This document shows, in pieces, positions 1 to 36,053 of a stretch of DNA of 36,053 bases. The stretch comes from a virus. Where the stretch lies: positions 1 to 36,053 of the IMG/VR virus record IMGVR_UViG_3300037047_000060. One strand, 5' to 3'. A program made the position numbers and the translations under genes. The notes under the pieces are model-generated. The model worked only from the letters and a program-made list of their open reading frames with translations. It was not told where the DNA came from and made no database searches. Positions within the stretch are counted from its first letter, which is position 1. Each line of letters starts with the position of its first letter.

Positions 1-127
1 ATCCATGAAAAGAATAGGGTACATATACGAAAAGATTTATGATAAAGAAAATTTAAGAACTGCAATTTATAAAGCAGCCAAAGGCAAATCAGATAAGAGG
101 AATATTAAGTTTATTTTAGATAATATT
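1..127. repeat. Terminal overlap. Bases 1-127 are identical to 35927-36053, so the window is a closed circle of 35,926 bp.
   Basis: Direct comparison of the two ends. Both read atccatgaaaagaatagggtacat...ttattttagataatatt, at a constant offset of 35,926. Confidence 0.95.
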
Positions 128-1144
128 GACAAATTTATAGACAGGCTTCACGAAGATCTAAAAAACGAAACATATAAACTTTCTGAAAATAGAATTAAAT
201 ATATTAAAGACGGTCCTAGACAAAAAGAAAGAATTATAACTGTACCGGCATTCTATCCAGATCAGGTTATTCACTGGGCATTGACAATACAAATTCAAAA
301 GGTAATGTCAAAGGGAATGTATTACTACAATTGTGGTTCTGTTCCAGGTAAAGGCGCACTATTTGCAAAAAACTATGTCGAAAGAGTTTTAAAAACGAAT
401 CCAAAATATGCTTTAAAAATCGACATTAAGAAATTCTTCCCATCTATTTCAAATGAAAAAATGAAACAACTATTTAGAAGAAAAATCAAAGATGATAAAG
501 TTCTAAGATTAATAGATGCCATCATCGACAACGGTGGGAAAGGATTACCAATTGGTTATTATACGAGCCAGTGGTTCTCAAATTTCTATTTAGAAGAGTT
601 AGATCACTTTATCAAAGAAGTAATCAAAATTCCGTATTATGTCAGATATGTAGATGATATGGTTTTATTTTCAAACAATAAAAGACAACTTCATCAAACA
701 AAAAACATGATCGAAGAGTTTCTGACCGGATATGAATACAGGCTAAAAATAAAAAATAATTGGCAAGTATTTCAAGTTTCCAAAAGGCCTATAGATTTTG
801 TAGAATATCAAATGTCACCAGGATTCACAAAGCTAAGGAAGCATATTTTTATAAGACTAAATAGATGCTCAAATCGATTAAGTAAAAAAATAACATTAAA
901 AAATGCTAGATCACTCGTATCCATGATGGGATGGATGATTCACACAAGCAACGGCAAGCGATATATTGAAAAATATATAGAGCCATTATCAAATACAACA
1001 AACTTAAAAAAATATATTGGGAGGATTCAAAAACATGAAAATAATCGAATCAGTGCAAGGGCAGATCGAACAAGCTCAAATTCTTGTCAAAGCAGAATCA
1101 ACAGTTTTCATCCACAAGAATATCAATCAAATAGAGCCACATGA
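5..1144 (+). CDS. Diversity-generating retroelement (DGR) reverse transcriptase
   Basis: 379-aa ORF with RT motifs: ERIITVPAFYPDQVIHWAL, NCGSVPGKG, the DGR-typical LPIGYYTSQWFSNFYL (I/LGxxxSQ) and the catalytic YVDD (VRYVDDMVLF). It lies about 115 nt downstream of a template repeat. RBS aaggag precedes the ATG in the copy at 35920-35933. Confidence 0.95.
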   Translation: MKRIGYIYEKIYDKENLRTAIYKAAKGKSDKRNIKFILDNIDKFIDRLHEDLKNETYKLSENRIKYIKDGPRQKERIITVPAFYPDQVIHWALTIQIQKVMSKGMYYYNCGSVPGKGALFAKNYVERVLKTNPKYALKIDIKKFFPSISNEKMKQLFRRKIKDDKVLRLIDAIIDNGGKGLPIGYYTSQWFSNFYLEELDHFIKEVIKIPYYVRYVDDMVLFSNNKRQLHQTKNMIEEFLTGYEYRLKIKNNWQVFQVSKRPIDFVEYQMSPGFTKLRKHIFIRLNRCSNRLSKKITLKNARSLVSMMGWMIHTSNGKRYIEKYIEPLSNTTNLKKYIGRIQKHENNRISARADRTSSNSCQSRINSFHPQEYQSNRAT

Positions 1145-1304
1145 AGATGATGATACAATGCTTTTTGAATACTGGGAAGCCCAATTATCATATGAAGAAT
1201 TTGAACACTATAAAAGCATAGCAGAAGATGATGAATATGATGGACCACTATCTGATGATGAAAAGTATATAATTCAAGTGATTAAATCCGAAGAATTGAG
1301 GTAA
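1035..1304 (+). CDS. Hypothetical, strongly acidic small protein
   Basis: ORF with RBS gggagg upstream of the ATG at 1035 (the track start at 1017 is less likely). Rich in D/E, no recognisable motif. Overlaps the 3' end of the RT gene. Confidence 0.6.
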   Translation: MKIIESVQGQIEQAQILVKAESTVFIHKNINQIEPHEDDDTMLFEYWEAQLSYEEFEHYKSIAEDDEYDGPLSDDEKYIIQVIKSEELR

Positions 1305-1309
1305 TTATC

Positions 1310-1582
1310 ATGGAACTAAAAAAGCCAGTAATAACCATAGGGTTTAATGAAACAGAAATATTAAAACAATTTTCATCAGATGAGTATCTATTAATAGACT
1401 CAGAAGAAAAAAAGGTCGAACTTTATAGTGGTGGTCAAATCACTCAAGGATATAGTCAGTTTAATTTAGCAAAAAAGACTTTCTTGAAAGCTGAAGCTAA
1501 CAAAAAGTCTCTAATTAAAATTGATAGCCCATTAACAGGGATAACAATGGATGTTTTGTATAAAAAGTGGGTGATTGACTAA
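1310..1582 (+). CDS. Hypothetical protein
   Basis: 90-aa ORF tightly packed between its neighbours. Its stop overlaps the next start (ATGT at 1582). Confidence 0.6.
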   Translation: MELKKPVITIGFNETEILKQFSSDEYLLIDSEEKKVELYSGGQITQGYSQFNLAKKTFLKAEANKKSLIKIDSPLTGITMDVLYKKWVID

Positions 1583-3903
1583 TGTATATCACTTTGTATA
1601 AAAATGATCCAGAAACAATATTCACAGCACCTGCAGCAACGCCTAGTCTATCTAACTATTTGCAAATAGTAGAAGGAAGCAGAGGAAGCTTGTGGCAATG
1701 CACAAGAACAGGAAGCGCAGGAGGATGGATAGAAGTATCAAATCCCGGAGGTGCAGTGATGGAATGTAATACTTGCCCACCTACAGGTGTAGGATCTCCA
1801 GGGCAATATTGCGGGTGCTATTTGGGATACTCAAGATATTATCAATATATACCTGAAACATATGTTTATTCATGGACCAAAGTTCAAGATGGATACCCAG
1901 AGATAATCTTTGGCGGAATCGTAAAAGAAGTAAGAGAAGATATTACTAAAAGAGTCTATGATAAAGATAAATCTACATTTGAAGGACTAGCTGATGAAAC
2001 ATTAGATGAACCACTAATCTTTGTAGTAAAGGAAGATGATGGAACATATGTGTATTCTGGATATGTAAACTCATGGTCACAGGATGCAAAAGTGTGCAGA
2101 TTTAAAGGTCTAGACTTCAAAACAATACTAGACACAGATGTAAGCCTAGACTTTTATGCAGACGTTGCAGAAGTTAACTTACAAGTATCTACCATATTAA
2201 ATAAAGTTTTTGATGCATTTGATAACAATCAACCACCTGTAGTATTTAATGTTCCAAGCATAACTACAGATACAGCATACATCACTAACTTCCTAGGGCA
2301 GGTGTTTACTACGAACGCACTTAAATTTATAAAAGTATATCTAGCAACTGCAGGATTGTTTATGCTTCCATTTTTTAATGAAATATCAAAAGAAATAGAA
2401 ATGGATGTCACATCTACTAATCAAGCAGCGACAATTCATCTTGATGACTTTGTTCATGAAAGTACTAAGACAGATACAAAAACTAACAAGTGCATCGCCA
2501 CAGTATCGCTTCCACAGGACTCAGAAGACACACCTGCAAACATTCAATGGATCAGAAGTTCAAAAGCCTACTATGATAGCTTACCAAGCAATCGTAAAAA
2601 GCAAGGCGAAGGTGTTGTAATTAATGAATCAGAATTCATAAGATTTCCAGGATCAAATTGGGGATACTTTGAATCAGAACCATCATCACCAAATAAATTT
2701 ATCAAATTAACTGTTTATCAATCATATGCAGATTTTAATACAATACTTACTACATGGAGCAAAAAGTTTATACTTCATATTCCATATCATCCAAATTTAG
2801 ATATGGCAGCATCTTTCATGAGAGAAAACGGTAGTGGATCGGCATATTTTAATAACACCAGACAAATGAATACGACAGTTCCAGTGATCGAAATTCATCC
2901 ATATACTGACTTTGGACAAGGATGGTTTATTGTAGAATTAAAAGGAACATACCCATTACCTTATGCTTATTATGAAATATTCTTGAAATTTAAAGGAGTA
3001 ACCAATCCGTCAGTAACATTAGGAACGACATTCAAAAATGAGCTTGCTAACAAAGTAATATTTGCAAAACAAACATCAATCCAAAATGTCAGACCTTATG
3101 AATTCGGGAAAACATATCAGCAGCAACCATGGTATATGTATCCAAAAGAAGTCTTACAATACGATGGCGACTATCCACCATATGGCGATGCTTATAGAAC
3201 ATTTTATTATAGTTACGATCACACATTTACAGCATTAACAGGCACACATACATTGCTAACACTATTAGGTACATGCCCTATAGACACATCGAGAATTAAA
3301 GTGTACTTAGGAGGCGATTTAGTATTTGATGGAGTAAATCAGTATGGAGCGCTAGAGTATGCAGAATTGATAAATTGTAGTATAGGTGTTTATTTCGGAT
3401 TTCAAGGTGGCGAACAGTTTTATTTCTACTTTGATGGAAGCTATGTAAACGACTACTACCCATCATCATTAAGAATTGTAATTGATGAAGTAGAAGTCTA
3501 CTGGCAAGTAGGACAGATACCACGTGAACCAAAACCAGTCCCATCAAGAAATTATTTTCTAGGAAAAGACAATCAGATATATGAGCAATTCATTGCACCT
3601 GCAAATCAAATATTCCCGGTGCAGCAGAAAATCATTGCAGAAGAGTTCTTCTACAAAGCACAATTTAATGCAGTATATGAACTCGTCAATTCAAGGTTTA
3701 ATCAAAACATTATTGTGCTAGACAATAGCAAAGTCAACCCGTTAGAATTATCAAATCTAGGCTTAAACGCTCAGATCACAGTCTATGATAAATTAAACAA
3801 TGTTGCTATACTACCAGTAAGCGAAATTGAAATCAGAAACGGCAAAAAAAGTGTTAAGCTTGGTTTTAAAAAAATATTTCTAACTGAGGTAATTAAGGGA
3901 TAA
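1582..3903 (+). CDS. Large tail-associated structural protein (Tal or receptor-binding type, putative)
   Basis: 773-aa ORF. On the circular map it lies downstream of the tape-measure and distal-tail genes. Function is inferred from size and position only. Confidence 0.45.
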   Translation: MYITLYKNDPETIFTAPAATPSLSNYLQIVEGSRGSLWQCTRTGSAGGWIEVSNPGGAVMECNTCPPTGVGSPGQYCGCYLGYSRYYQYIPETYVYSWTKVQDGYPEIIFGGIVKEVREDITKRVYDKDKSTFEGLADETLDEPLIFVVKEDDGTYVYSGYVNSWSQDAKVCRFKGLDFKTILDTDVSLDFYADVAEVNLQVSTILNKVFDAFDNNQPPVVFNVPSITTDTAYITNFLGQVFTTNALKFIKVYLATAGLFMLPFFNEISKEIEMDVTSTNQAATIHLDDFVHESTKTDTKTNKCIATVSLPQDSEDTPANIQWIRSSKAYYDSLPSNRKKQGEGVVINESEFIRFPGSNWGYFESEPSSPNKFIKLTVYQSYADFNTILTTWSKKFILHIPYHPNLDMAASFMRENGSGSAYFNNTRQMNTTVPVIEIHPYTDFGQGWFIVELKGTYPLPYAYYEIFLKFKGVTNPSVTLGTTFKNELANKVIFAKQTSIQNVRPYEFGKTYQQQPWYMYPKEVLQYDGDYPPYGDAYRTFYYSYDHTFTALTGTHTLLTLLGTCPIDTSRIKVYLGGDLVFDGVNQYGALEYAELINCSIGVYFGFQGGEQFYFYFDGSYVNDYYPSSLRIVIDEVEVYWQVGQIPREPKPVPSRNYFLGKDNQIYEQFIAPANQIFPVQQKIIAEEFFYKAQFNAVYELVNSRFNQNIIVLDNSKVNPLELSNLGLNAQITVYDKLNNVAILPVSEIEIRNGKKSVKLGFKKIFLTEVIKG

Positions 3904-13530: not shown

Positions 13531-13720
13531 AGCATTAACAGCAAAGCCCGGACAAGCTGTAAAAGTTAAAATCAATGGCGAATGGGTAGATGGAATATAT
13601 ATCCAAACAACAATGTTCCACATTAAAGTAGCAGTTTTATATAATGGTGAGATAAGACAAATTAATGCAGAACATCATCAAGTAAGAGATTTTAAATCGA
13701 GAGTGGGTGTACCTAGATGA
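13523..13720 (+). CDS. Hypothetical small protein
   Basis: The ATG at 13523 is 7 nt after ggagga. 65 aa. Confidence 0.55.
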   Translation: MDKALTAKPGQAVKVKINGEWVDGIYIQTTMFHIKVAVLYNGEIRQINAEHHQVRDFKSRVGVPR

Positions 13721-14301
13721 TTGTAGAAACTCCTGCAGGAAAAGGAAGATATGGAATCATATTAATAGATCCACCATGGCAACTGATGAGAGGTGGAAAA
13801 ATGAAAAAAAAGCCGAATTCATCAGGAATGCCAGTTCCATACAAAACAATGGCACTAGAAGAAATCAAATTATATATCCAAAATATAGTCAGTGAATCAC
13901 AAGAAGCAAATCTATTTATATGGTGCATTCAAAAGTACTACATAGAACTTGATAAGATGATGAAAAGCTTAGGCTATAAAAAACACACAGACATCATATG
14001 GTCAAAAGGAAATGGTCCATGTCCTGCATTCACAATGAGAATGACTCATGAGTACCTGCAGTGGTGGTACAAGCCCGGACACATTCTAATGCCAATCAAT
14101 CCAGGACATCATGCAACAGTCATACATGAACCCAACTCAGACCATAGCAAAAAACCAAAAGCAGCATACGAATTGATAGAATCAATGTTCCCAGATGCAA
14201 TGAAATACGAAGTGTTTGCAAGAAAAGAGAGAATCGGATGGGATGCATTCGGTGACGAACTAGGAGGAAGTGGCCATGGGCGATGTGAAGAAACCAAGTA
14301 G
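13717..14301 (+). CDS. MT-A70 family DNA N6-adenine methyltransferase
   Basis: YGIILIDPPWQ (DPPW catalytic motif) plus the C-terminal HSKKPKAAYELIESMFP...ARKERIGWDAFGDE, typical of the MT-A70/Dam-like phage family. Confidence 0.85.
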   Translation: MIVETPAGKGRYGIILIDPPWQLMRGGKMKKKPNSSGMPVPYKTMALEEIKLYIQNIVSESQEANLFIWCIQKYYIELDKMMKSLGYKKHTDIIWSKGNGPCPAFTMRMTHEYLQWWYKPGHILMPINPGHHATVIHEPNSDHSKKPKAAYELIESMFPDAMKYEVFARKERIGWDAFGDELGGSGHGRCEETK

Positions 14302-18055: not shown

Positions 18056-19639
18056 ATGGACTTATTCAGCACAATGGTACCTAGCATTAAGTTTTCAAAG
18101 AACAATGAACTAACTATGAATGAAAACTTTGCAGGAATAGGTGCATTTAAAAAAGGGTTCGAAAGAGCAGGCTTCAAGGTAAAAGTTGTTGCAATTAGCG
18201 AAATAGATAAATACTGCATCCAAACATACAATGAGATACATGGACCAGTTAATAACCTAGGCGCTATAGGCTCATTCGATAGGCTTCCTGCAGGAGTTGA
18301 TGTATGCACATGGTCATTCCCATGTCAAGACATTTCAAATGCAGGACATGGCAAAGGAATGGAAGAAGGAACCAGATCCAATTATGGGTTCGTATTCTTA
18401 GAAACATTAAGAAATACACCTATAGAAGAAAGACCAAAAGTACTCATCATGGAAAACGTTGCATTGTTATTCAGCAAAAAGTTTCATAAATATTGGAGTA
18501 GGATACTTACGATATTATCGGAATGCGGATATCAGAACTATCCAGGGAAAATGAATGCCAAAGATTATGGGGTAGCACAAAACAGAGATAGAGTCTTTAT
18601 AGTATCCGTACTAGGCGAATATAGTTACGAATATCCTAAACCATTCAAATTAGAAAAAAAGCTTAAAGACTATTTAGAGCCACAAGTTATTGAAAAGTTT
18701 TATTTAACAGCAGATCAGATACTTTCAATGTTTAAATCTAAATATGAAAGTATGGGTATCAAAAGAGTTAAAGAAGAAGATGCTGAAACAATCAATGCAA
18801 TCACAACGATGCAGGGCGGAAATAGAGAACCTAAAATAATTGAAAACATTAAGAAAGATGAAAGAGAACCAAAGATAGCATACGCAGTCGCAAGTCGTGA
18901 ATTCAGAGAACGTGGTTTTATGGAAATAGCACCCACACTTCTATCAAGAGATTATAAGGATCAAAAAATATTAGAAATACCACAAGATAAAACGATATGC
19001 ATAAACTCAAAGGTGGATGGGAAGCAACCAAGCATTCAAAACAGAGTGTATGATGTCGAAGGACTTTCAACCGCTATAACAACGTCATTCATGACAAATA
19101 GTGCAGAACCACAGTTCGCATATGGACCACAAAAAAGAGAATTCTCAGGTTTTAAAGAAATTGCCCATACATTAAGAGCAACTGACTATAAGCAACCTAA
19201 CGTAGTTTTAATACCTGAGAAGACAAAAAAAGAATATGCAGAAGCAACCGATGGCGATGGAATCTATATCAACAGACCATATCAAAAAAGAGGTACAGTC
19301 CAAAAAGGAAAGATACACACAATAAAAACTTCACCAGATGACATAGGTCTAGTAGAAAACATCCAGACCGAAGTAAAAAAATTAAAGTTAGTCTACGACT
19401 TGGGATTATTTAGAATATACGAAGACGAGGACAAAAAAGCATATCTTATGAATAAAGATGGTCAACTATCAAGAATTAGAAAAGTGACACCACGTGAATC
19501 ATGGAGGCTCATGGACTTTGATGAAGAAGACTTCAATAAAGCAGAAAAACTGAACAGCAACACTCAATTATATAAACAAGCAGGAAATTCAATAGTCGTA
19601 GGAGTTATAGAACAAATAGCAAGAATGATGATGGAGTAA
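18056..19639 (+). CDS. DNA (cytosine-5) methyltransferase with an expanded, internally repeated target-recognition region
   Basis: Motifs: I FAGIGAF, IV SFPCQDIS, VI IMENV, VIII QNRDRVFIV, IX VTPRESWRLMDF, X AGNSIVVGV. About 270 aa lie between motifs VIII and IX. That region holds duplicated segments (AYAVASREFRERGFMEIAPTLLSRDYKDQKILEIP and AYGPQKREFSGFKEIAHTLRATDYKQPNVVLIP) and three xTIxT(S/M) motifs. Confidence 0.9.
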   Translation: MDLFSTMVPSIKFSKNNELTMNENFAGIGAFKKGFERAGFKVKVVAISEIDKYCIQTYNEIHGPVNNLGAIGSFDRLPAGVDVCTWSFPCQDISNAGHGKGMEEGTRSNYGFVFLETLRNTPIEERPKVLIMENVALLFSKKFHKYWSRILTILSECGYQNYPGKMNAKDYGVAQNRDRVFIVSVLGEYSYEYPKPFKLEKKLKDYLEPQVIEKFYLTADQILSMFKSKYESMGIKRVKEEDAETINAITTMQGGNREPKIIENIKKDEREPKIAYAVASREFRERGFMEIAPTLLSRDYKDQKILEIPQDKTICINSKVDGKQPSIQNRVYDVEGLSTAITTSFMTNSAEPQFAYGPQKREFSGFKEIAHTLRATDYKQPNVVLIPEKTKKEYAEATDGDGIYINRPYQKRGTVQKGKIHTIKTSPDDIGLVENIQTEVKKLKLVYDLGLFRIYEDEDKKAYLMNKDGQLSRIRKVTPRESWRLMDFDEEDFNKAEKLNSNTQLYKQAGNSIVVGVIEQIARMMME

Positions 19640-19643
19640 GAAA

Positions 19644-20555
19644 ATGATAATCATAGGCAATGCATTAGAAGAATTGAAAAAGCTTGAAGATGAAAGCATA
19701 GATTGCATCATTACATCACCACCATACTGGTCATTAAGAGATTATTAAACTGCAGGACAAATCGGACTTGAACCTACAATTAAAGAATATATCCAAAATT
19801 TAATAAAAGTTTTTAATGAAGCAAAAAGAGTTTTAAAGAAAGATGGAACCTGTTGGGTTAACATAAGCGATACATACTCAGGCGATAAGACTGGAAAGAC
19901 AGATCAGAAGATGCAATACATACCAAAGCAAAATCTAAAGAAGAGAGTGAGAGAACTCCCAAGAAAATCGCTATGTAACATACCTGCTAGGTTTTCAATA
20001 GCAATGCAGGACGAAGGATGGATACTTAGAAACGAAATTATATGGTACAAACCAAACGCTATGCCATCGAGCGTAAAGGACAGGTTCACAGTAGACTTTG
20101 AAAAGATATACTTCTTCACAAAGAACACAGAGTATTACTTCAACCAACCAAAAGAACCTATGAGAACAAACGATATAAGCCAACCAAGAGGAAGCAAAGG
20201 GGTTCTAGGATCAATGAATGGAGGAAGAAGAAACAAGCAGCAAGAACAACCAAGGCCAACAGAACAGAACCTGATGCGTAACAAACGTACAGTATGGACC
20301 ATAAACACCCAAAGAAGCACGTACGAACACTTTGCAATGTTCCCTAAAGAACTAGTGGAAACCATCATAGAAGCAGGATGTAGACCACAAGGTGTAGTCC
20401 TAGATATGTTCCTAGGCTCAGTTACCACAATCAAGGTGGCAAGCACAATGAATAGAGCATACGTGGGTATTGAAATCAATCCAGAGTATGCTCAGATAGC
20501 AAAGAAAAGAATGGAAAATGTTCAGATCAGTATATTTGGATGGGAAGATGGATAA
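19644..20555 (+). pseudogene. SPPY-type (N4-C / N6-A, beta-class) DNA methyltransferase interrupted by one in-frame TAA (19746-19748)
   Basis: The ATG at 19644 gives MIIIGNALEELKKLEDESIDCIITSPPYWSLRDY, then TAA. The same frame continues open as TAGQIGLEPTIKEY...NEIIWYKPNAMPSSVKDRF...FPKELVE...VLDMFLGSVTT...GIEINPEY to 20555. Motif I is degenerate (GSVTT instead of GSGTT). Confidence 0.8.
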
Positions 20556-20954: not shown

Positions 20955-21028
20955 TTCTTCACGAAAATATGCCGATTTTTGAAAAAACTTGACATTATGT
21001 TAAACTTTTAGAGAAGGATGTGAAAAGC

Positions 21029-22291
21029 ATGGAAGTTAAAATGATAGATCCAAAAAGTATTATTCCGTATGAAAATAACCCAAGAAAGAATGACAAAGCT
21101 GTAAAACCTTTGATGGAATCCATTCAGCAATTTGGGTTTAATGTTCCAATCACAGTAGACAAGAACATGGTAGTAGTTACAGGTCACACACGATTAAGAG
21201 CAGCACTAAAACTTAAGATGACAGAAGTTCCCATTATCATTCTTGATGGACTTGACGATGAAAAAATCAAAGCATTTAGATTAGCAGACAATAAGTTGTC
21301 CGAAATTGCTGATTGGGATATACAAAAACTGATTGAAGAACTACAAGGCATAGAAATAGACATGACAATCTTCGGCTTCAAAAAAGAGAAGAGTGTTGAT
21401 GATGTAGATGGCGATGATTACGACTTTACACTAGATCCAAAACCAAAGAGTAAACTAGGCGACATTTATCAACTCGGAAGACATCGACTAATCTGTGGCG
21501 ATGCACGTATCAAAGATGACATTGATAATTTAATGGATGGAAAAATGATAGACTGCATCATTACAGATCCACCATACAATGTTGACTATAAAGGCGGAGG
21601 CTCTAACAAGCGAAGCGGTATTCAAAACGACAACATGAATGATGATGCATTCCTAGAATTCCTAACTGACAGTTTTGGAAACATGGCAGCTTATCTCAAA
21701 CCGGGCGGATCATTTTATATATGGTATGGCGATAGCAATGATATCGAATTCAGAATGGCAATCAAAAGAGCAGGACTTGATATCAAGCAAACTATCAACT
21801 GGGTAAAGAACGCATTCACACTTGGAAGACAGGACTATCAATGGCAACATGAACCATGCATCTACGGATGGAAGCCCGGTGCAGCACACTACTTCATTGA
21901 TGACAGAACATGGTCGACAGTATTCTCTGATGACTTTAACATCAGCAAAATGAATGCTAAAGAAGTAAAAGCAATACTGACTCAAATCTTCGAATCAGTT
22001 CAAACAAGTGTACTAAGATATGATAAACCAACAAGAAGCGCAGAGCATCCTACAATGAAACCAGTCAAGTTGATTGCAAGGCTGATGCAAAACAGCAGCA
22101 ACCCGGACGAAAGCATTCTGGATCCATTTGGAGGTTCTGGTACCACACTTATTGTAGCTGAACAAATGAATAGAACTTGCTACATGTCAGAACTTGATCC
22201 CAAGTATGTTGATGTCATAATTAACCGATGGGAAGAGATGACAAAGCAAAAAGCTGTTAAACTAAATAATAGCGAAACCATGGGAGGATAA
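21029..22291 (+). CDS. ParB-like nuclease domain fused to a DNA N6-adenine/N4-cytosine methyltransferase
   Basis: The N-terminus IPYENNPRKNDKAVKPLMESIQQFGFNVPITVD...GHTRLRAA is a ParB/Srx fold. IITDPPYNVDY is motif IV and LDPFGGSGTTLIVAEQ is motif I. The ATG at 21029 is 10 nt after agaagga (the track start is a GTG at 21020). Confidence 0.9.
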   Translation: MEVKMIDPKSIIPYENNPRKNDKAVKPLMESIQQFGFNVPITVDKNMVVVTGHTRLRAALKLKMTEVPIIILDGLDDEKIKAFRLADNKLSEIADWDIQKLIEELQGIEIDMTIFGFKKEKSVDDVDGDDYDFTLDPKPKSKLGDIYQLGRHRLICGDARIKDDIDNLMDGKMIDCIITDPPYNVDYKGGGSNKRSGIQNDNMNDDAFLEFLTDSFGNMAAYLKPGGSFYIWYGDSNDIEFRMAIKRAGLDIKQTINWVKNAFTLGRQDYQWQHEPCIYGWKPGAAHYFIDDRTWSTVFSDDFNISKMNAKEVKAILTQIFESVQTSVLRYDKPTRSAEHPTMKPVKLIARLMQNSSNPDESILDPFGGSGTTLIVAEQMNRTCYMSELDPKYVDVIINRWEEMTKQKAVKLNNSETMGG

Positions 22292-22292
22292 C

Positions 22293-22454
22293 ATGAAACC
22301 AAAGAAACAAACAAATCCAAAAAGAATTGTAGTCATTGACGATGCAGGAAATGGCGATGCAACATGCACTGTTGTAGCAAAAGTCAAAGATGGAGTTGTA
22401 ACGATTATTAGCGAAAAACTTGAAAAGAGTAGAAAAGGAGTTCAAAACCGATGA
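22293..22454 (+). CDS. Hypothetical small protein (53 aa, below the ORF-track cut-off)
   Basis: The ATG at 22293 follows gggagga. It fills the gap between the ParB-MTase and metK, and its stop overlaps the metK start (ATGA). Confidence 0.5.
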   Translation: MKPKKQTNPKRIVVIDDAGNGDATCTVVAKVKDGVVTIISEKLEKSRKGVQNR

Positions 22455-23527
22455 GATTATTCAGCACTGAACAAGTATCAAAGTATCACCCAGACAAATA
22501 TGCAGATCAGATAAGCGATGCAATCCTTGATGCAGCACTTAAGAAAAACAAAAATGCCAGAGTCGCTGCAGAAACACTTGTCAAAGATAAGATTGTTATT
22601 GTCGCAGGGGAAACAAGCGAAGAATTCTCCAGGGAAGAGATTGAAGCAATCGTTAAAAACATAGCATTCAAACTTAGATATGAAGTAGAAACAGTCATCA
22701 ATCTTCTTGGAAAACAGTCACAACAAATAAATCATGCAGTTGATGGCAATGATGCGGATGATCCTGCAGCAGGCGACCAAGGCATCATGTTTGGATATGC
22801 AACAAGCGAAACATCAAGTTATCTTCCATTCGGATTCCATATTGCAAATCACATCATCAAACACATTGAACATTACGCTGACGAAGGAAGAATATTCAAA
22901 GGCGATGCAAAAGTTCAAGTTACAGTAGACTTAGATAAATATACTAGAGAATCAATTCATACAATTTTAGTCAGCGCATGTCATTATGAAGACATTGATG
23001 AAAAAACTGTGAAGAAAACGATTCAGGACATCATTGTCAATTCATTAAGATTTAACGAATGTAAAAATATTGATGAAGTGATAATCATAGCAAATCCATC
23101 AGGCGTGTGGACCATAGGCGGACCAGTAGCAGACTCAGGACTCACAGGAAGAAAGATAGTCTGCGACCAATATGGCGGATACGTTCAAGTGGGTGGTGGC
23201 GCATTCTCTGGAAAAGATCCAAGCAAGGTAGACAGAAGCGGTTCCTATGCAGCAAGAGAAATTGCAGTAAGAGCAATCGATAAATTTAAGAAATACGGAC
23301 TAGCAGACGTTCAAATTCAAGTAGCCTATGGAATAGGTATCAAAGAACCATTAAGCGTCAACGTCATTCTTAATGGAAGTTTAACTGCCGATGATAGAAA
23401 AGAAATTCATGAATATATCAATCGAATTGAATTAACTCCAGGATCGATAATCAAACGTCTAGGACTCAAAGATTTAAAATACAGTGAAATAGCAGGCGGA
23501 TGCCACTACTATGGCAAACACTGGTAG
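22451..23527 (+). CDS. metK: S-adenosylmethionine synthetase (MetK homologue, phage-encoded)
   Basis: HPDKYADQISDAILDA, AAGDQGIMFGYA, GGPVADSGLTGRKIV and GGGAFSGKDPSKVDRSGSYAAR match the MetK signature blocks. 358 aa. Confidence 0.9.
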   Translation: MRLFSTEQVSKYHPDKYADQISDAILDAALKKNKNARVAAETLVKDKIVIVAGETSEEFSREEIEAIVKNIAFKLRYEVETVINLLGKQSQQINHAVDGNDADDPAAGDQGIMFGYATSETSSYLPFGFHIANHIIKHIEHYADEGRIFKGDAKVQVTVDLDKYTRESIHTILVSACHYEDIDEKTVKKTIQDIIVNSLRFNECKNIDEVIIIANPSGVWTIGGPVADSGLTGRKIVCDQYGGYVQVGGGAFSGKDPSKVDRSGSYAAREIAVRAIDKFKKYGLADVQIQVAYGIGIKEPLSVNVILNGSLTADDRKEIHEYINRIELTPGSIIKRLGLKDLKYSEIAGGCHYYGKHW

Positions 23528-31950: not shown

Positions 31951-34089
31951 ATGGCAGCCGAAACAGCAAAAGGTGTAATAATCACCATAGGAGCGGACAC
32001 TAAACAATTCGAAAAAGGTTTAAAAACAATGGACCGTGAAATCAAAAACACGTCCAAGCAAACCGCTGCACTTGTAGAATCACTCAAAATCAAGTGGGAT
32101 GATAAAACCTTTATTGAAGCCCAAAAGTCCGCACAAAAAGCACTTGACGATACCAACTCGAAAGCTAAATCATTGCGCGATCAGATGAAGTATCTTGAAG
32201 AAAGCGGAGGTTCTGTAGACAGCGAAGGATATCGCAAACTACAGACTCAACTAACCCTGACTGAAACAAGTGCTATTAAACTAAAGAAAGAACTCCAGGA
32301 TCTTCAAAACATAAAGTTTGAGAATCTAGCAAACAAATTTAATACTGCAGGATCCGCTATAACAAAGGTAGGACGGTCGCTTGCTGTATTCTCAGCAGCG
32401 GCTGTCGGTGCCTTAGTGGGTACTACAGCACTCTTCAACAGCACTGTGAAACTAGCAGCAGAAATAGACGATATGAGTCAAGCTGTCAACCTGAGCGCAG
32501 AACAGTTCCAGAGATGGCGCTATATTGCAAATCAAGTGGGTGTTGATAATACGACACTACAGACAGCCCTTGCTAAGACACAGGGTTCTTTTGCTAATCT
32601 TGCACAAGGTGTATCGAATACTGGCTCCAAGGCGTTAGAACGTCTTGGTTTTAGTGCATCCGATGCAGCTAAAGGCATGGGAGCGAACTTCGAAGCGATG
32701 ATCCAAAGATTAAGTGGCATCTCAGATGCATCAGAACAAGCGTATCTGGCAAACGAAATCTTTGGCGAACGTTTAGGATCCAAAGTTATCCCATTATTAA
32801 ACAGCGGCGCGGAAGGCATAGCACAACTCACCAAAGAGTTTGAATCACTAGGATACATGACAGATAGTCAAGTCGCAAGCCTAGCAGCATATGACGACCA
32901 ATGGCTAGCGATTAAAACATCATTCAAAAGCATTAAGAATGACATCAGCGTATCCTTGCTACCACTATTCCAAGCACTGACAAACATCATCCAAGAGAAA
33001 ATAGTTCCTGCAGTCCGTTCCATGGCCGAATGGTTTGCAGATTTATCAGATAAAACAAAAACAAACATCGCCATCATGCTGACAGTAGTTGCAGCACTGG
33101 CTCCAGTGATTCTAATCATAGGAAAGCTCACATCAGTTATGGGAAGCTTAATAGGCGGTATAGGCGGTCTTTCTAAAGCATTGACATTCCTAATGGCACA
33201 TCCTATCATCGCAGCAATAGCAGCCATCGTAGGCATCATGGTACTACTTTATACAACTAATGAGAAAGTAAGAGAATCAATAAATAACATAGTATCTACA
33301 ATAGGAACTGCACTGGCTCCAATTATGCAAATGCTAGGTGAATTATTCAATCAAGTACTTCAAGCAGTAATGCCTTTGGTAACTATGATAGGCGATTTAC
33401 TTGTTCCAATTTTAGATATGATAGGACCATTATTAACACCACTTATTGACTTATTAAAAGCAGCATTAGTTCCAGTCATGGCGATACTATCAAACAATAT
33501 TAAAGTCTTCATGGCAATACTAACACCAGTGATTAAATTACTGCAAATGGTCCTGGTACCAGTTATGGCTATAATTCAAAAAAGCATAGGATTTATAACG
33601 CAATTGATGCAACCACTTAAAAATGCACTTATGGGATTAGCTCCAGTGTTTAACTTTATTTTTAATCTATTTCAAAAAGGTTTAGAACTTGTAGAAAAGG
33701 GTATTCAATTTGTGCTCAAAGGCATAGAAAACGTCATTAATAGCGGAATAGATATGATAAATCATTTGATCAGAGCAATAAACAGTCTTGGTAAATGGTT
33801 AGGTATATCATTAGAAGAACTTAATCACATCCGCATTAATATTGAGTCAGGAACAACATCACAGCCATCACCCACACCACAACAAGTTGAAACTCCTGCA
33901 GGAACAGCACAGACCGCATTAGATGGCGCATATGGACAAGGTATCAGCAACAGCTACAATACCACTACCACGAACGACTACAGCAACAAAGAAGTCAATA
34001 TCAACGTGACAGTCCAGAACTATGCGGAACAAGTCGATGTGGATGATATGGTAAGACAAATCAATATCAAGCTAGCGGAGGCAATGTAA
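31951..34089 (+). CDS. Tape measure protein
   Basis: 712 aa with an N-terminal coiled coil, a long hydrophobic and repetitive central region, and a canonical position. Confidence 0.85.
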   Translation: MAAETAKGVIITIGADTKQFEKGLKTMDREIKNTSKQTAALVESLKIKWDDKTFIEAQKSAQKALDDTNSKAKSLRDQMKYLEESGGSVDSEGYRKLQTQLTLTETSAIKLKKELQDLQNIKFENLANKFNTAGSAITKVGRSLAVFSAAAVGALVGTTALFNSTVKLAAEIDDMSQAVNLSAEQFQRWRYIANQVGVDNTTLQTALAKTQGSFANLAQGVSNTGSKALERLGFSASDAAKGMGANFEAMIQRLSGISDASEQAYLANEIFGERLGSKVIPLLNSGAEGIAQLTKEFESLGYMTDSQVASLAAYDDQWLAIKTSFKSIKNDISVSLLPLFQALTNIIQEKIVPAVRSMAEWFADLSDKTKTNIAIMLTVVAALAPVILIIGKLTSVMGSLIGGIGGLSKALTFLMAHPIIAAIAAIVGIMVLLYTTNEKVRESINNIVSTIGTALAPIMQMLGELFNQVLQAVMPLVTMIGDLLVPILDMIGPLLTPLIDLLKAALVPVMAILSNNIKVFMAILTPVIKLLQMVLVPVMAIIQKSIGFITQLMQPLKNALMGLAPVFNFIFNLFQKGLELVEKGIQFVLKGIENVINSGIDMINHLIRAINSLGKWLGISLEELNHIRINIESGTTSQPSPTPQQVETPAGTAQTALDGAYGQGISNSYNTTTTNDYSNKEVNINVTVQNYAEQVDVDDMVRQINIKLAEAM

Positions 34090-35648
34090 TGATAAGAAAA
34101 TTTAAACTATGGAATTATCAAATGACAAGTTCATATGATATTTCATTAAATTCGATAAAGGTAACTGATGTAAAAGGACTAGGATCAAATATCAATCATC
34201 AAGTTTATGATGACAAGTATAAAAAAACAATTTTAAAGAGTGATATTAAGTTTTCGGATATTGAATTAACAATCATATTTGGGCTAAAAAACGACGCCTA
34301 TGCGGATTTTATGAACTTCATGCAGTTCTTAGCAACTAATGGCAAAAAACCTTTCACGCTTGAATATACGCATAATTCAGCTACAAGATATGTTGATGTT
34401 ATGCCGAAGAATATGCCAAAGTCTCAAAAATCACAATTTAGGATATTAACTGAAAATTTTACATTTGAAAGATTAACACCATATTATGAACTTATCGAAG
34501 AAAATGATGTAACATCTGTGGTTATAGAAAATGACTACATCGAAGATATTAAACCTATCATCAAAATTAAAGGTACGTCATCAGCATCAACTATTCTAAA
34601 GTTTAATAGTCATTCATCCGATGAAAATATAATTTTGGGTATCACAGGCCTTCCAAAAGACAATACATTGTTAACAAGGTTATATAGTTCAAATGGTTTG
34701 GGTTATCGAATCATCGATGCTGGCGATTATACATACGTACAATCTGATTTTGATAATTTGTACCCATACTCAGAGATGAAAGAAGTTGTTGATGAATTTG
34801 GGAATGTATTCATCAAAATTCCCAAGTTCTATATGTTTAATAGTGGAAATGAAAGAGCAATTTCTAAGCATAAGATTGATGATAACTGGTTCTTACCACC
34901 GGTATTCTATGGTCCAGATGGAGAACTTGATTACTTCTTGTATGGAAAATATCCTGCATTTACAGTAGGAACCAAATTAACAAGTAATACCGGGGTACTT
35001 CCTACCGTATCACAAAACATTACTACGTTTAGAACAAGAGCTAAAGCAAACGGTCTTGGCTATCAACAGCTAGATATCTGGGCAATCAATGTAATTCAAA
35101 CATTATTTTTAGTAGAGTTTGCTACTTCGAATTCACAAAACTTATTTAGAGGAAGAGTAGATCATACAGAAAGAGTAGTAACTGGAGCAACTGATTATAT
35201 TAAACAACCAAGCGGTGTCCATAAAGCAACCAATCAATTTAAGTATAGAGGAATTGAAGATGTATTCGGACACATATGGCAGTTTATAGATGGTATTAAC
35301 TTTGATGAAGAAAACATCATGATTTGTTATGATCCTGAAAAGTATATCAGTACATCCATAACTGCAGATTATGAGCTATTTGGCCAAAGACCTATGGCGA
35401 ACGGTTATGTTAAAGAAGAAACATTTAACATAGATCATAAAGGATTTCAATTTCCAAGTGTTTTAGGTGCATCAACATCCACATATTATGCGGATTATTA
35501 CTATCAAGCGACAGGATTAAGAATTGCATTATTCGGCGGTAGCTGGAGCAGTGGCTCGTATGCGGGTCTCTGGTATTGGTATTCTGACAATGCTGCTTCG
35601 AGCACGAGCTCGAGCGTCGGCGGTCGCCTTCTTAAAAAACCCTTGTAG
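34089..35648 (+). CDS. DGR target protein: a tail protein with a Dit-like N-terminal half and a C-terminal FGE-sulfatase/C-type-lectin-fold domain carrying the variable repeat
   Basis: The C-terminal YRGIEDVFGHIWQFIDG ... FGGSWSSGSYAGLWYWYSDNAASSTSSSVGGRLL is the typical CLec/FGE-type DGR scaffold. The last 35 codons or so are the VR. The start overlaps the tape-measure stop. Confidence 0.9.
   Translation: MIRKFKLWNYQMTSSYDISLNSIKVTDVKGLGSNINHQVYDDKYKKTILKSDIKFSDIELTIIFGLKNDAYADFMNFMQFLATNGKKPFTLEYTHNSATRYVDVMPKNMPKSQKSQFRILTENFTFERLTPYYELIEENDVTSVVIENDYIEDIKPIIKIKGTSSASTILKFNSHSSDENIILGITGLPKDNTLLTRLYSSNGLGYRIIDAGDYTYVQSDFDNLYPYSEMKEVVDEFGNVFIKIPKFYMFNSGNERAISKHKIDDNWFLPPVFYGPDGELDYFLYGKYPAFTVGTKLTSNTGVLPTVSQNITTFRTRAKANGLGYQQLDIWAINVIQTLFLVEFATSNSQNLFRGRVDHTERVVTGATDYIKQPSGVHKATNQFKYRGIEDVFGHIWQFIDGINFDEENIMICYDPEKYISTSITADYELFGQRPMANGYVKEETFNIDHKGFQFPSVLGASTSTYYADYYYQATGLRIALFGGSWSSGSYAGLWYWYSDNAASSTSSSVGGRLLKKPL
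35532..35633 (+). repeat. DGR variable repeat (VR)
   Basis: Aligns without gaps to 35715-35816 (offset 183). The 13 mismatches all fall where the TR has A. There are 0 mismatches at TR C, G or T. Confidence 0.95.
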
Positions 35649-35654
35649 GGGGTT

Positions 35655-35673
35655 GTAAGGGGTCTCCCCTTAC
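35655..35673 (+). promoter_or_regulatory. GC-rich hairpin downstream of the VR (candidate DGR target-recognition cruciform)
   Basis: gtaagggg-tct-ccccttac: a perfect 8-bp stem with a 3-nt loop, 22 nt after the VR/TR homology ends. Confidence 0.6.
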
Positions 35674-35681
35674 TAAACTAC

Positions 35682-35709
35682 TTAATTGTTTTTAATAACC
35701 GGGTATAAT
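35682..35709 (+). promoter_or_regulatory. Candidate promoter for the TR-RT transcript
   Basis: TATAAT at 35704-35709, about 6 nt before the TR begins. A weak -35-like TTAATT sits at 35682-35687 with a 16-nt spacer. Confidence 0.45.
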
Positions 35710-35714
35710 ATGCG

Positions 35715-35816
35715 ATCGGCGGTAACTGGAACAATGGCTCGAATGCGGGTCTCTGGTATTGGAATTCTAACAATGCTGCTTCGAACACGAACTCGAACAT
35801 CGGCGGTCGCAATCTT
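35715..35816 (+). repeat. DGR template repeat (TR)
   Basis: The invariant donor copy adjacent to the RT. It contains 26 adenines, including 6 AAC and 5 AAT codons in the VR reading frame. 13 of the 26 adenines are substituted in the VR. Confidence 0.95.
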
Positions 35817-35930
35817 TTACAAGTTAATACTTTATGCATATTATATCCATAGCCCTAGCTAAAAAACACTCATAAGGGATTGGTCTAGTAAGTCATTGAA
35901 AAACCAATAAGAGTAAAAGAAGGAGTATCC

Positions 35931-36053
35931 ATGAAAAGAATAGGGTACATATACGAAAAGATTTATGATAAAGAAAATTTAAGAACTGCAATTTATAAAG
36001 CAGCCAAAGGCAAATCAGATAAGAGGAATATTAAGTTTATTTTAGATAATATT
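35931..36053 (+). CDS. 5' part of the DGR RT gene (duplicate of 5-127 caused by the terminal overlap)
   Basis: Identical to the start of the window. RBS aaggag at 35920-35925. Confidence 0.9.
   Translation, partial: MKRIGYIYEKIYDKENLRTAIYKAAKGKSDKRNIKFILDNI

Follow-up and report, generated by a model that had tools for sequence, protein, structure and literature searches.

Evidence for an Avd-less diversity-generating retroelement in the tail module of a circular siphophage genome

The stretch of viral DNA analysed here (IMG/VR record IMGVR_UViG_3300037047_000060, 36,053 nucleotides; hereafter, the window) contains a tail gene whose 3'-terminal sequence recurs shortly downstream with all differences confined to adenines of the second copy. 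The initial annotation read this pair, as variable repeat (VR) and template repeat (TR), together with a reverse transcriptase (RT), as a complete diversity-generating retroelement (DGR). The locus thus raises the question of whether it is a genuine DGR, whether it has been at work recently, and which protein it diversifies. As one DGR among tens of thousands (~31,000 have been catalogued; Handa et al. preprint), its existence would be unsurprising, and it is of a known kind in a simpler, Avd-less form. Based on the evidence given below, it is very probable that the cassette is a genuine DGR of the Avd-less target-TR-RT architecture, located in a complete circular siphophage genome.

Genome organization

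The window represents a complete, circular, ~35.9-kb temperate siphophage genome, with the DGR situated in the tail module. Its ends form a direct repeat of 127 nt (35927-36053 being identical to 1-127), which is the assembly overlap of a circular genome, and the unique length without this overlap is 35,926 bp. The same genome has also been assembled in other permutations (contigs of 35,935 and 35,956 bp), and target, TR and RT are contiguous in two other assemblies of it with a different permutation. Because 1-127 equals 35927-36053, the RT codons found at 35931-36053 duplicate those at 5-127, and the window after the TR holds just the first 41 RT codons. The RT had been described as following the TR and as bearing YVDD and IGxxxSQ motifs; both motifs are present, while the stated order is true only across the circular junction.

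The relatives used for comparison were taken from IMG/VR and from a protein cluster look-up. A search of the cassette DNA against 50,697 deposited phages gave zero matches, as did a search of the A-masked VR/TR pattern against JGI metagenome contigs, and an RT scan of genome contigs retrieved only two relatives (52%), both in Clostridia MAGs. Judged from the relatives, the host of this phage is probably Gram-positive (Bacillota), unlike that of Bordetella phage BPP-1, which carries the prototype DGR.

The repeat pair and its 3' elements

A repeat search matched the VR (35533-35633, plus strand) to the TR (35716-35816, plus strand) over 101 nt, at an offset of 183 and with 88% identity. Base-by-base comparison bore out the gap-free alignment proposed for 35532-35633 and 35715-35816, and found 13 mismatches, at the same TR positions as given in the initial annotation, each of them an A in the TR. 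The reported substitution spectrum was likewise reproduced, with eight A>G, four A>T and one A>C changes and mismatches at 0/76 non-A positions. The probability that all 13 mismatches would by chance fall on the 26 adenines among 102 positions is 1.1e-9 (hypergeometric). The VR spans the last 39 codons of ORF 34089-35648, and in the frame of this gene the TR does contain 6 AAC and 5 AAT codons, all 26 of its adenines being at codon position 1 or 2 and none at position 3. As a result, 3.7e13 peptide variants and zero stop codons are reachable from the VR. A second VR was looked for elsewhere in the genome and none was found.

The 26 VR positions had all been regarded as mutable. They are indeed templated by TR adenines, but the mutable count is 23 (TR 35724-35799). 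In 7/7 distinct VRs, TR 35715 faces T and TR 35811-35812 face CT; since these three are the same in every relative, they are repeat-edge differences (IMH vs IMH*, the latter at TR 35800-35816) and not products of mutagenesis. With the three edge adenines fixed, the mutagenised stretch is VR 35541-35616, which contains 23 A-templated sites in 13 codons. The window's own VR differs from the TR at 10/23 of these adenines.

The IMH-like 3' end of the VR (35617-35633, plus strand) consists of the GC-rich TCGGCGGTCGC (35617-35627) and CTTCTT, the TR counterpart of the latter being AATCTT, fixed in all relatives. This VR end is invariant in all VRs and sets the 3' limit of variation; by analogy with the IMH of BPP-1 (PMC5758913), it may well serve the same function here. 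Two adjacent inverted repeats are located 3' of the VR, one at 35638-35654, which includes the stop codon, and the other at 35655-35673 (GTAAGGGG-TCT-CCCCTTAC). The DNA of 35638-35673 folds with an energy of -16.2 kcal/mol (z = -3.6), and 0/200 shuffles fold as well. Both hairpins are kept in all relatives, and the TR has no inverted-repeat counterpart at its 3' side.

The target gene

The DGR target gene (34089-35648, plus strand) encodes a protein of 519 aa and is directly preceded by the tape measure gene (31951-34089), assigned by PHROG tape measure families. Its N-terminal hub domain (34092-34598, plus strand; aa 2 to ~170) matches the distal tail protein (Dit) family Dit_N of Pfam (E-value, 1.6e-14), with aa 2-127 aligned to positions 1-127 of the 129-position model. 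No homologue was retrieved in a first search with the N-terminal fragment, and an exhaustive search of 1.84 billion representatives gave 119 homologues, mostly of ~250 aa. The profile built from these had its PDB hits in a 'Distal tail protein' (30yx, 5e-21) and in ORF15 of phage p2 (6e-10). The AF2 model of this domain reaches pLDDT > 93 for aa 1-140, and its top Foldseek matches are the p2 baseplate chain ORF15/Dit (4v5i_AS, 2.7e-7), phiCD508 baseplate chains, the Bxb1 tail tip and the SPP1 Dit. Based on Pfam, profile and Foldseek results as well as the gene order after the tape measure, the N-terminus of the target is a siphophage Dit hub domain. The earlier designation of the target as a tail protein is therefore correct and can be narrowed to a Dit fusion.

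The VR is carried by the second domain (34626-35645, plus strand; aa ~180-519), for which AF2 and Foldseek indicate a C-type-lectin fold. Modelled with pLDDT > 90 over aa 180-519, it matches TaqVP (5vf4, 6e-12) and Mtd (1yu0-1yu4, 7e-4 to 6e-3) in Foldseek searches against the PDB, with weak matches to FGE and TvpA, and profile search against the PDB also retrieved TaqVP (2.3e-5). PHROG 5302 ('tail protein') aligns to aa 238-518 of the target at 7e-54, and 889 homologues share the C-domain only. No match to this domain was obtained from Pfam or NCBIfam, including FGE-sulfatase and DUF6273. On the predicted structure, the target fits the C-type-lectin-fold variable proteins of DGRs (Mtd/TvpA/TaqVP class). 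The Dit homologues align to aa 2-170 only, and model confidence is low at aa 140-180 or 188-235; the lectin-fold domain seems either to replace the usual galectin-like C-domain of Dit or to come after it.

The 'evolved' Dits of lactococcal and Lactobacillus siphophages carry carbohydrate-binding modules. Like them, the target has a Dit hub domain with an additional, baseplate-exposed binding module; unlike theirs, this module is not a fixed CBM but a DGR-diversified C-type-lectin-fold domain. The target of BPP-1 is a fibre-tip protein, whereas the Dit fusion of the window belongs to the tail hub. A literature search for a link between DGRs and Dit found none. DUF6273, Ig-like or Mtd-like domains have been reported in the DGR targets of Faecalibacterium phages (PMC11792537), unlike the target described here, with its Dit_N N-terminus and a C-domain without a Pfam match.

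The reverse transcriptase

The DGR RT (5-1144, plus strand; codons 1-41 repeated at 35931-36053) comprises 379 aa, with IGYYTSQ at aa 183 (nt 551) and YVDD at aa 215 (nt 647). In bRT of the Bordetella phage, the I, G and Q of the former motif touch the template base or the incoming dNTP (bioRxiv 10.1101/2023.10.23.563531). The protein belongs to Pfam RVT_1 (3e-14) and PHROG 1423 (2.6e-98). Its best relative in the PDB is bRT (8ub7; E-value, 2e-23; 86 bits), followed by a 224-aa 'RNA-directed DNA polymerase' chain (8bgj; 8e-14; 55 bits), group II RTs (1.8e-11; 47 bits) and retron-type RTs (34 bits). When compared directly with brt of BPP-1, the two are 29% identical (tblastn E-value, 5e-24). 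The last ~35 residues are of low complexity and overlap the next ORF. An A-only TR/VR pair likewise precedes the RT in four distinct relatives (5 loci).

The spacer RNA and the predicted long-range duplex

The spacer between TR and RT harbors the RT-18 RNA motif (Rfam RF03021; 35850-35922, plus strand), which scores 54.7 bits vs a gathering score of 41.3 and ends 9 nt upstream of the start codon of the RT. The motif was found at the same place in 10/10 non-Bordetella loci scanned, a figure that comprises 8 distinct relatives (L013, L015-L016, L018-L021; RT 38-59% identical), counts one contig twice (L017/L022) and includes the close relative L005. In an alignment of 49 sequences, helix P1 is 100% and helix P3 89% paired, and both covary through compensatory changes. 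De novo RNAalifold analysis of the TR-to-RT region recovered P1 and P3 of RT-18, and neither P2 nor the long-range duplex described next.

This U/A-rich duplex is predicted to form between a TR-proximal strand (UCUUUUAC, 35813-35820, plus strand) and a spacer-side strand (GUAAAAGA, 35913-35920, plus strand) located immediately upstream of the ribosome-binding site of the RT gene (AGGAG, 35921-35925). In 48 related loci, the corresponding site has an equivalent duplex of different sequence, and cognate strands pair more strongly there than non-cognate ones (-9.3 vs -5.9 kcal/mol; p = 4e-13). The same holds for the 9 independent sequence classes (-10.6 vs -7.1; p = 0.0016). On raw MAFFT columns, the duplex was no better paired than slid controls (66.0% vs 66.3% at +2); because this column count fails, support for the duplex comes from the alignment-free comparisons of cognate and non-cognate strands. 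A promoter search for the TR RNA gave one promoter-like site (35816-35844), which is no more than in shuffles, and a terminator scan gave none.

The absence of Avd and a candidate accessory gene

The accessory variability determinant Avd is essential in the BPP-1 system; it is found in 74% of curated DGRs and is not universal. In the window, Pfam bAvd matched 0/47 ORFs at E <= 0.1, under conditions in which the BPP-1 control was matched at 7e-36, and the best tblastn E-value with Avd was 0.58; together, these searches rule out an Avd on either strand. In the related loci, bAvd matched 0/133 small basic ORFs. The DGR can therefore be called complete, as it initially was, with respect to the Avd-less architecture, and not as regards Avd itself. 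The evidence supports the presence of all testable defining DGR features except this non-universal accessory gene. Avd-less DGRs are a recognised class that makes up 29% of a curated set (PMC5758913). Without Avd, the mechanism must depart in detail from that of BPP-1.

A small acidic ORF (1035-1304, plus strand; 89 aa; pI 4.2) overlaps the 3' end of the RT gene and is preceded by a ribosome-binding site, GGGAGG (1019-1024). In L022, the 59% relative, a homologue is found at this position, and nearly all relatives have acidic ORFs (pI 4.0-5.2) after the RT, one family being 170 aa long; the similarity of the 89-aa ORF to this family is weak (hhalign E-value, 1.2e-3; probability, 20%). Homologue search with ORF 1035-1304 retrieved its own cluster only, which probably reflects the omission of RT-overlapping ORFs during gene calling. 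The 89-aa ORF, a 90-aa ORF and the 773-aa downstream protein were all without matches in Pfam and NCBIfam. According to the literature, CH1 proteins are acidic (pI 4.7), 160-169 aa long and found only in avd-less DGRs (PMC5758913). The window resembles CH1-type Avd-less DGRs in having a small acidic ORF beside the RT, and differs, on a comparison made with the published description of CH1, in the length of its product. ORF 1035-1304 is a candidate accessory gene that may be functionally linked to the DGR.

Comparison with known systems

The locus shares with the BPP-1 DGR (mtd-avd-TR-brt) the adenine-specific TR-to-VR transfer and AAY codon design, a VR within the final ~100 nt of a C-type-lectin-fold tail receptor-binding gene, a GC-rich IMH with a downstream inverted repeat, and an RT with IGxxxSQ and YxDD. 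In both systems, a structured spacer RNA lies between TR and RT, represented there by Phage_DGR (RF03022) and here by RT-18. Unlike BPP-1, the window has no Avd, and its TR starts only 82 nt after the VR, with no intervening gene. In its order of target, TR and RT without avd, the locus is similar to Architecture A (TR-RT, no accessory gene) and to Lineage 3/CH1-type DGRs of Wu et al. 2018 (PMC5758913). RTs 35-40% identical to that of the window are encoded by Faecalibacterium phages, Lactobacillus phage LBR48 and Butyrivibrio phages Idris and Arawn, and LBR48 also shares the order TR, RT-18, RT and acidic ORF. For the Faecalibacterium phage DGRs, only TR, VR and RT are given as key components, and 'Avd' is absent from the text (PMC11792537).

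Variation among relatives and alternative explanations

The comparison set contained 12 sources, corresponding to 10 independent assemblies of near-identical phages. The TR was 100% identical in 12/12 sources, while seven distinct VRs were present among the 10 independent assemblies. Across these VRs, 23/23 A-sites vary, and zero non-A repeat positions do. Pairwise comparison of L006, L009 and L010 revealed differences at 14-17 of the 23 A-sites, whereas only 2-4 positions differ in the remaining 1537 nt of the gene, and in a 90% protein cluster with 9 members the variable codons are exactly the 13 that contain A. The expectation that variation would be confined to positions templated by TR adenines, with the TR itself invariant, was thus upheld by proxy, across independent assemblies. 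The invariant TR and hypervariable VRs of near-identical relatives, seen as between-assembly differences, indicate that the DGR is recently active.

It could be argued that the DGR is a relic here, having worked recently in the lineage in a copy that no longer diversifies its VR. The three assemblies of this genome (W, L003, L004) share a single VR sequence, Avd is lacking, and the C-terminal tail of the RT is odd. Against this stand an intact RT ORF with all catalytic motifs, and a TR, IMH, hairpins and RT-18 identical to those of relatives that have different VRs in an otherwise near-identical gene; the lack of Avd is, moreover, shared with the recognised class mentioned above. A relic is therefore considered quite unlikely. 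Far less probable still is that the gene 3' end was simply duplicated in a tandem-like manner and then diverged under diversifying selection, without reverse transcription. Tail receptor-binding tips are often under such selection, but here the differences are all at adenines of the non-coding copy, every such site varies and no other does, the non-coding copy is fully conserved across strains, and a DGR-type RT and spacer RNA adjoin the repeats, so that this explanation is effectively refuted. An RT of another system placed next to the repeat by coincidence has a negligible probability, since its NCBIfam scores as a group II RT (91.5 bits), retron St85 RT (79.4) or Drt3a defence RT (67.4) are far under the respective cut-offs of 300, 235 and 200, and since it bears the DGR-type IGxxxSQ motif, has the DGR enzyme bRT as its best solved relative and follows A-only repeat pairs in relatives as well.

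Proposed mechanism

The initial reading of the locus as a DGR is thus sustained by the A-only TR/VR pair, the VR at the 3' end of the tail gene, the IMH with its hairpins, the bRT-like RT and the lectin-fold target. If the locus works as in Bordetella phage BPP-1, the RT would bind an RNA that covers the TR and the RT-18 spacer immediately upstream of its own gene. Synthesis of cDNA would start a few nt 3' of the GC-rich end of the TR, probably cis-primed from the spacer strand that pairs with 35813-35820, and the RT would misincorporate opposite the 23 template adenines. The mutagenised cDNA would then replace the homologous part of the VR (35541-35616), with the GC-rich IMH and the inverted repeats marking the VR as recipient. 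The predicted outcome is a set of 13 randomised codons, drawn from the whole range of reachable variants (up to 3.7e13), on the putative ligand-binding face of the Dit-borne lectin-fold domain. Receptor binding being the presumed function of this face, the likely effect would be an altered choice of the host surface structure bound by the phage.

A broader proposal may be put forward tentatively, and taken as a whole it is somewhat more likely to fail than to hold: that the locus belongs to an Avd-independent branch of DGRs. RT-18 might act as a scaffold for cis-primed cDNA synthesis through the duplex of 35813-35820 with 35913-35920, in which case priming would be expected from a nucleotide near A35920, with 35812-35810 as the approximate site of the first templated base. 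The acidic protein, which would be translationally coupled to the RT, could perform part of the role of Avd. Finally, the same lectin-type variable module may have been grafted onto different tail parts, here onto Dit.

Significance

The locus is an unusually clean natural example of a DGR, combining a complete circular genome, an identical TR across ten assemblies, variation at 23/23 adenines and near-identical strains. At ~2.4 kb from the target 3' end to the acidic ORF, it is a compact test case for how DGRs work without Avd, and the RT-18 helices, the duplex between TR flank and spacer, and the acidic ORF offer predictions that can be addressed by mutation. The fusion described here suggests that, in phages infecting Gram-positive bacteria, Dit can act in host recognition and be diversified by a DGR. 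If the broader proposal is true, the baseplate hub itself would be a hypervariable receptor binder.

Repeat Pair and Mutable Positions

A repeat search of the window recovered a direct repeat of 101 nt with 88% identity and a spacing of 183 nt (35533–35633 and 35716–35816), the upstream copy of which, the variable repeat (VR), forms the 3′ end of the target gene (34089–35648). No further copies were found on either strand of the window. Base-by-base comparison of 35532–35633 with 35715–35816 exactly reproduced the 13 mismatches reported in the initial annotation: each is an adenine in the downstream copy, the template repeat (TR), facing G in eight cases, T in four and C in one, and none of the 76 non-adenine positions differs (P = 1.1 × 10⁻⁹ for all 13 mismatches falling on adenines; hypergeometric, 26 adenines in 102 positions). 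In the frame of the target ORF, the TR carries six AAC and five AAT codons, the same counts as reported initially, and all TR adenines occupy codon position 1 or 2.

TR positions 35715 and 35811–35812 face T and CT, respectively, in all seven distinct VRs compared and were therefore regarded as edges of homology. The 3′ edge pair lies directly after the GC-rich block TCGGCGGTCGC (35617–35627 in the VR, 35800–35810 in the TR) and, by analogy, corresponds to the IMH/IMH* of BPP-1, the Bordetella phage prototype; this distinction has been predicted for nearly all diversity-generating retroelements (DGRs) (PMC5758913). Since three of the 13 differences are fixed edges, the 26 mutable positions proposed initially are reduced to 23 adenines in 13 codons (ten AAY, TAT, ACG and ATC). 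Computation gave 7.0 × 10¹³ DNA and 3.7 × 10¹³ peptide variants reachable from these adenines, and no reachable stop codons. Two adjacent inverted repeats 3′ of the VR (35638–35654 and 35655–35673) fold far better than shuffled sequences (z = −3.6) and are conserved across all relatives, whereas no comparable inverted repeat was found in the sequence 3′ of the TR.

Variation among Near-Identical Relatives

Relatives were found by scanning IMG/VR with a repeat query carrying N at each adenine (two contigs), and by exact look-up of the target and reverse transcriptase (RT) proteins, whose 90% clusters had nine and seven members, respectively; the contigs were fetched. The resulting set comprised 12 sources, equal to 10 independent assemblies, and variation was measured between assemblies. 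The TR (35715–35816) was identical in all 12 sources and no non-adenine position of the repeat varied, i.e., with assemblies as a proxy for reads, neither of these two kinds of variation, which the initial annotation counted against a DGR, was seen. On the other hand, seven distinct VRs were present, and each of the 23 TR adenines in 35724–35799 varied in at least one of them (161 site observations: A 80, G 43, T 25, C 13). Protein-level variation of the target cluster was located in exactly the 13 codons that contain these adenines. Pairwise, the near-identical relatives L006, L009 and L010 differ at 14–17 of the 23 sites, versus only 2–4 positions in the other 1537 nt of the gene. Varying adenine sites together with an invariant TR and a near-constant remainder of the gene are expected from adenine-specific mutagenic homing that was both recent and repeated, but not from ordinary divergence or selection.

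Reverse Transcriptase

Downstream of the TR, the window contains only 41 codons of an ORF with an ATG at 35931. Bases 1–127 are identical to 35927–36053, which indicates a circular contig with an assembler overlap, and the ORF continues as ORF 5–1144, encoding an RT of 379 aa. Thus, the RT does follow the TR, as proposed initially, albeit across the circular junction and not inside the linear end of the window. Two independent assemblies of the same genome, one from a JGI sample (35,935 bp) and one from Logan (35,956 bp), are permuted differently, and both run without a break from the target gene through the TR to the RT.

The RT matches Pfam RVT_1 and PHROG 1423 (2.6 × 10⁻⁹⁸), and contains the previously noted YVDD (aa 215) and IGxxxSQ (IGYYTSQ, aa 183) motifs; in the Bordetella phage RT (bRT), the I, G and Q of the latter contact the template base or the incoming nucleotide (bioRxiv 10.1101/2023.10.23.563531). 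The closest solved structure is that of bRT itself (8ub7; 2 × 10⁻²³). Weaker matches include a 224-aa "RNA-directed DNA polymerase" chain (8bgj; 8 × 10⁻¹⁴), group II RTs (1.8 × 10⁻¹¹), retron-type RTs and Drt3a. Identification as a group II, retron or defence RT was rejected, with all NCBIfam models for these classes far below their cut-offs. The nearest RTs in deposited phages (35–40% identity) are those of Lactobacillus phage LBR48, Butyrivibrio phages and crAss-like phages; RTs of Bordetella phages were matched as well. In three 52% relatives (L015, 5001–5810; L019, 4001–4810; L020, 4001–4819), the RT ORF ends after 269–272 codons, and tblastn similarity to the window RT runs on to residue 325–342; an in-frame stop, a frameshift or recoding could account for this.

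Target Protein

The target gene lies directly 3′ of the tape measure gene (31951–34089). Its N-terminus matches Pfam Dit_N over the whole model (1.6 × 10⁻¹⁴). A word-indexed search with the N-terminal 235 aa (34089–34793) returned nothing, though a 96%-identical full-length protein is present in the database, a gap due to the search tool and not to the biology; an exhaustive search yielded 119 homologues aligned to aa 2–170, mostly of about 250 aa, the classical size of a distal tail protein (Dit). Their profile matches the PDB "Distal tail protein" 30yx (5 × 10⁻²¹) and ORF15 of lactococcal phage p2 (6 × 10⁻¹⁰). The AF2 model (pLDDT above 93, aa 1–140) is most similar to p2 ORF15, and also resembles phiCD508 baseplate chains, Bxb1 tail tip chains and SPP1 Dit. 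The N-terminal domain is thus a distal tail protein.

Residues ~180–519 form a second confidently modelled domain (pLDDT above 90), the best structural matches of which are DGR variable proteins (TaqVP, 6 × 10⁻¹², followed by Mtd variants); formylglycine-generating enzyme and TvpA match weakly (E-values, 0.27 and 0.32). This domain is widespread (889 matches), and is almost always joined to other N-termini. Of 39 targets of related DGRs, only two have Dit_N; tail-collar-fibre, tail-tube or BppU domains are found in some of the remainder. No link between DGRs and Dit was found in the literature searched.

Spacer RNA and Predicted Priming Duplex

The sole Rfam family in the window is RT-18 (RF03021; 35850–35922; 54.7 bits, threshold 41.3), which ends 9 nt upstream of the RT start codon. 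RT-18 belongs to a set of 19 "RT" motifs described from the neighbourhood of RT genes; in that work, RT-10 was shown to lie between the TR and brt of BPP-1, and a role for the other motifs in further DGRs was put forward as speculation (PMC5737381). RT-18 occupied the TR–RT spacer in all 10 non-Bordetella loci scanned, phage LBR48 included, while this position is held by RF03022 ("Phage_DGR") in BPP-1. Adenine-only TR/VR pairs are located just upstream of RT-18 in four distinct relatives (five loci), and its helices P1 and P3 covary (49 sequences). A conserved block outside the Rfam model lies directly 5′ of the P1 hairpin (35826–35849; alignment A5, columns 129–143; consensus ATTGCACnnCATATTCC, window version TATGCATATTATATCC). 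In many loci its sequence, TATAAT or CATAAT, resembles a −10 box, and in the window it overlaps the single promoter-like match (35816–35844); the block may be either an RNA element or a promoter.

Synthesis of BPP-1 cDNA is primed in cis by an adenosine of the spacer, within a duplex that the spacer forms with the TR 3′ end (PMC6182149; bioRxiv 10.1101/2023.10.23.563531). In the window, the octamer just 3′ of the TR GC block, UCUUUUAC (35813–35820), is complementary to GUAAAAGA (35913–35920) in the RT-18 tail. In 48 unique loci related to this one, a duplex can be formed at the corresponding pair of sites by at least eight different sequences (e.g., UUCUUGUUGGC/GCCAACAAGAA and UCUCAUUAG/CUAAUGAGA). 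Over these loci, the duplex energy was −9.3 kcal/mol for cognate pairs versus −5.9 for non-cognate and −5.2 kcal/mol for shuffled ones (p = 4 × 10⁻¹³ and 1 × 10⁻¹⁶, respectively); with one representative for each of nine sequence classes, it was −10.6 versus −7.1 kcal/mol (p = 0.0016), and the cognate partner was the best in four of the nine (p = 0.012). In a column-wise test on the MAFFT alignment, in which the U/A-rich strands are out of register, pairing was no better than in slid controls. The predicted priming duplex is regarded as supported but unproven.

Absence of Avd, Candidate Accessory Gene and Downstream Region

The Pfam bAvd model, which detects BPP-1 Avd at 7 × 10⁻³⁶, matched none of the 47 window ORFs on both strands (E ≤ 0.1); in related loci, it likewise missed all 133 small basic ORFs lying close to the RT. 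A tblastn search with Avd against the circularised genome gave only noise. According to Wu et al., avd is present in 74% of curated DGRs, the accessory-free TR–RT architecture accounts for 29%, and one lineage lacks avd (PMC5758913). The element therefore belongs to the known Avd-less class, in which sense alone it is "complete", as described in the initial annotation.

A candidate accessory gene, ORF 1035–1304 (89 aa; pI 4.2; RBS GGGAGG), begins within the RT, sharing the final 110 nt of that gene, and its homologue in a 59% relative (L022, 3604–3882) is in the corresponding position. Almost all of the ~60 related Avd-less loci have a small ORF with a strongly acidic product (pI 4.0–5.2; 52–271 aa; e.g., L013, 1840–2250, and L039, 4025–4537) that follows the RT or overlaps its end. 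These ORFs form several sequence families, one of 170 aa, to which the window family shows weak profile similarity (E-value, 1.2 × 10⁻³; probability, 20%). Acidic CH1 proteins occur only in avd-less DGRs (Wu et al., PMC5758913), and, compared by description, the acidic ORF may correspond to this accessory gene.

ORFs 1310–1582 (90 aa) and 1582–3903 (773 aa) follow, where a tail-associated lysin or tip protein is expected after Dit, and neither has Pfam, PHROG or NCBIfam matches. Based on their place and the lack of family matches, the DGR core (TR, RT and acidic ORF) appears to be an insertion that separates Dit from an unrecognisable tail protein further downstream.

Elsewhere, the window has an unusual load of DNA-modification genes (13717–14301, 18056–19639, 19911–20555, 21020–22291 and 22451–23527): an MT-A70 methylase, a C-5 cytosine methylase, two N6/N4 methylases, of which one is a fusion with a ParB_N domain, and an S-adenosylmethionine synthetase that is complete, with all three domains. 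Another MT-A70 match and one to DarA_C were found at other positions in the window. The methylases and the synthetase look like an anti-restriction package with its own methyl-donor supply.

Implications

The element is a true DGR, and comparison among assemblies gives strong evidence that it was recently active; the initial interpretation holds, as amended above for the mutable adenines, the position of the RT and the sense of "complete". Modestly new are the variable lectin domain anchored on Dit, the placing of RT-18 between TR and RT in a group of DGRs that lack Avd, the priming duplex predicted here, and the acidic ORF that recurs among the related loci. With these features, the cassette is a convenient system for the study of mutagenic retrohoming without Avd.
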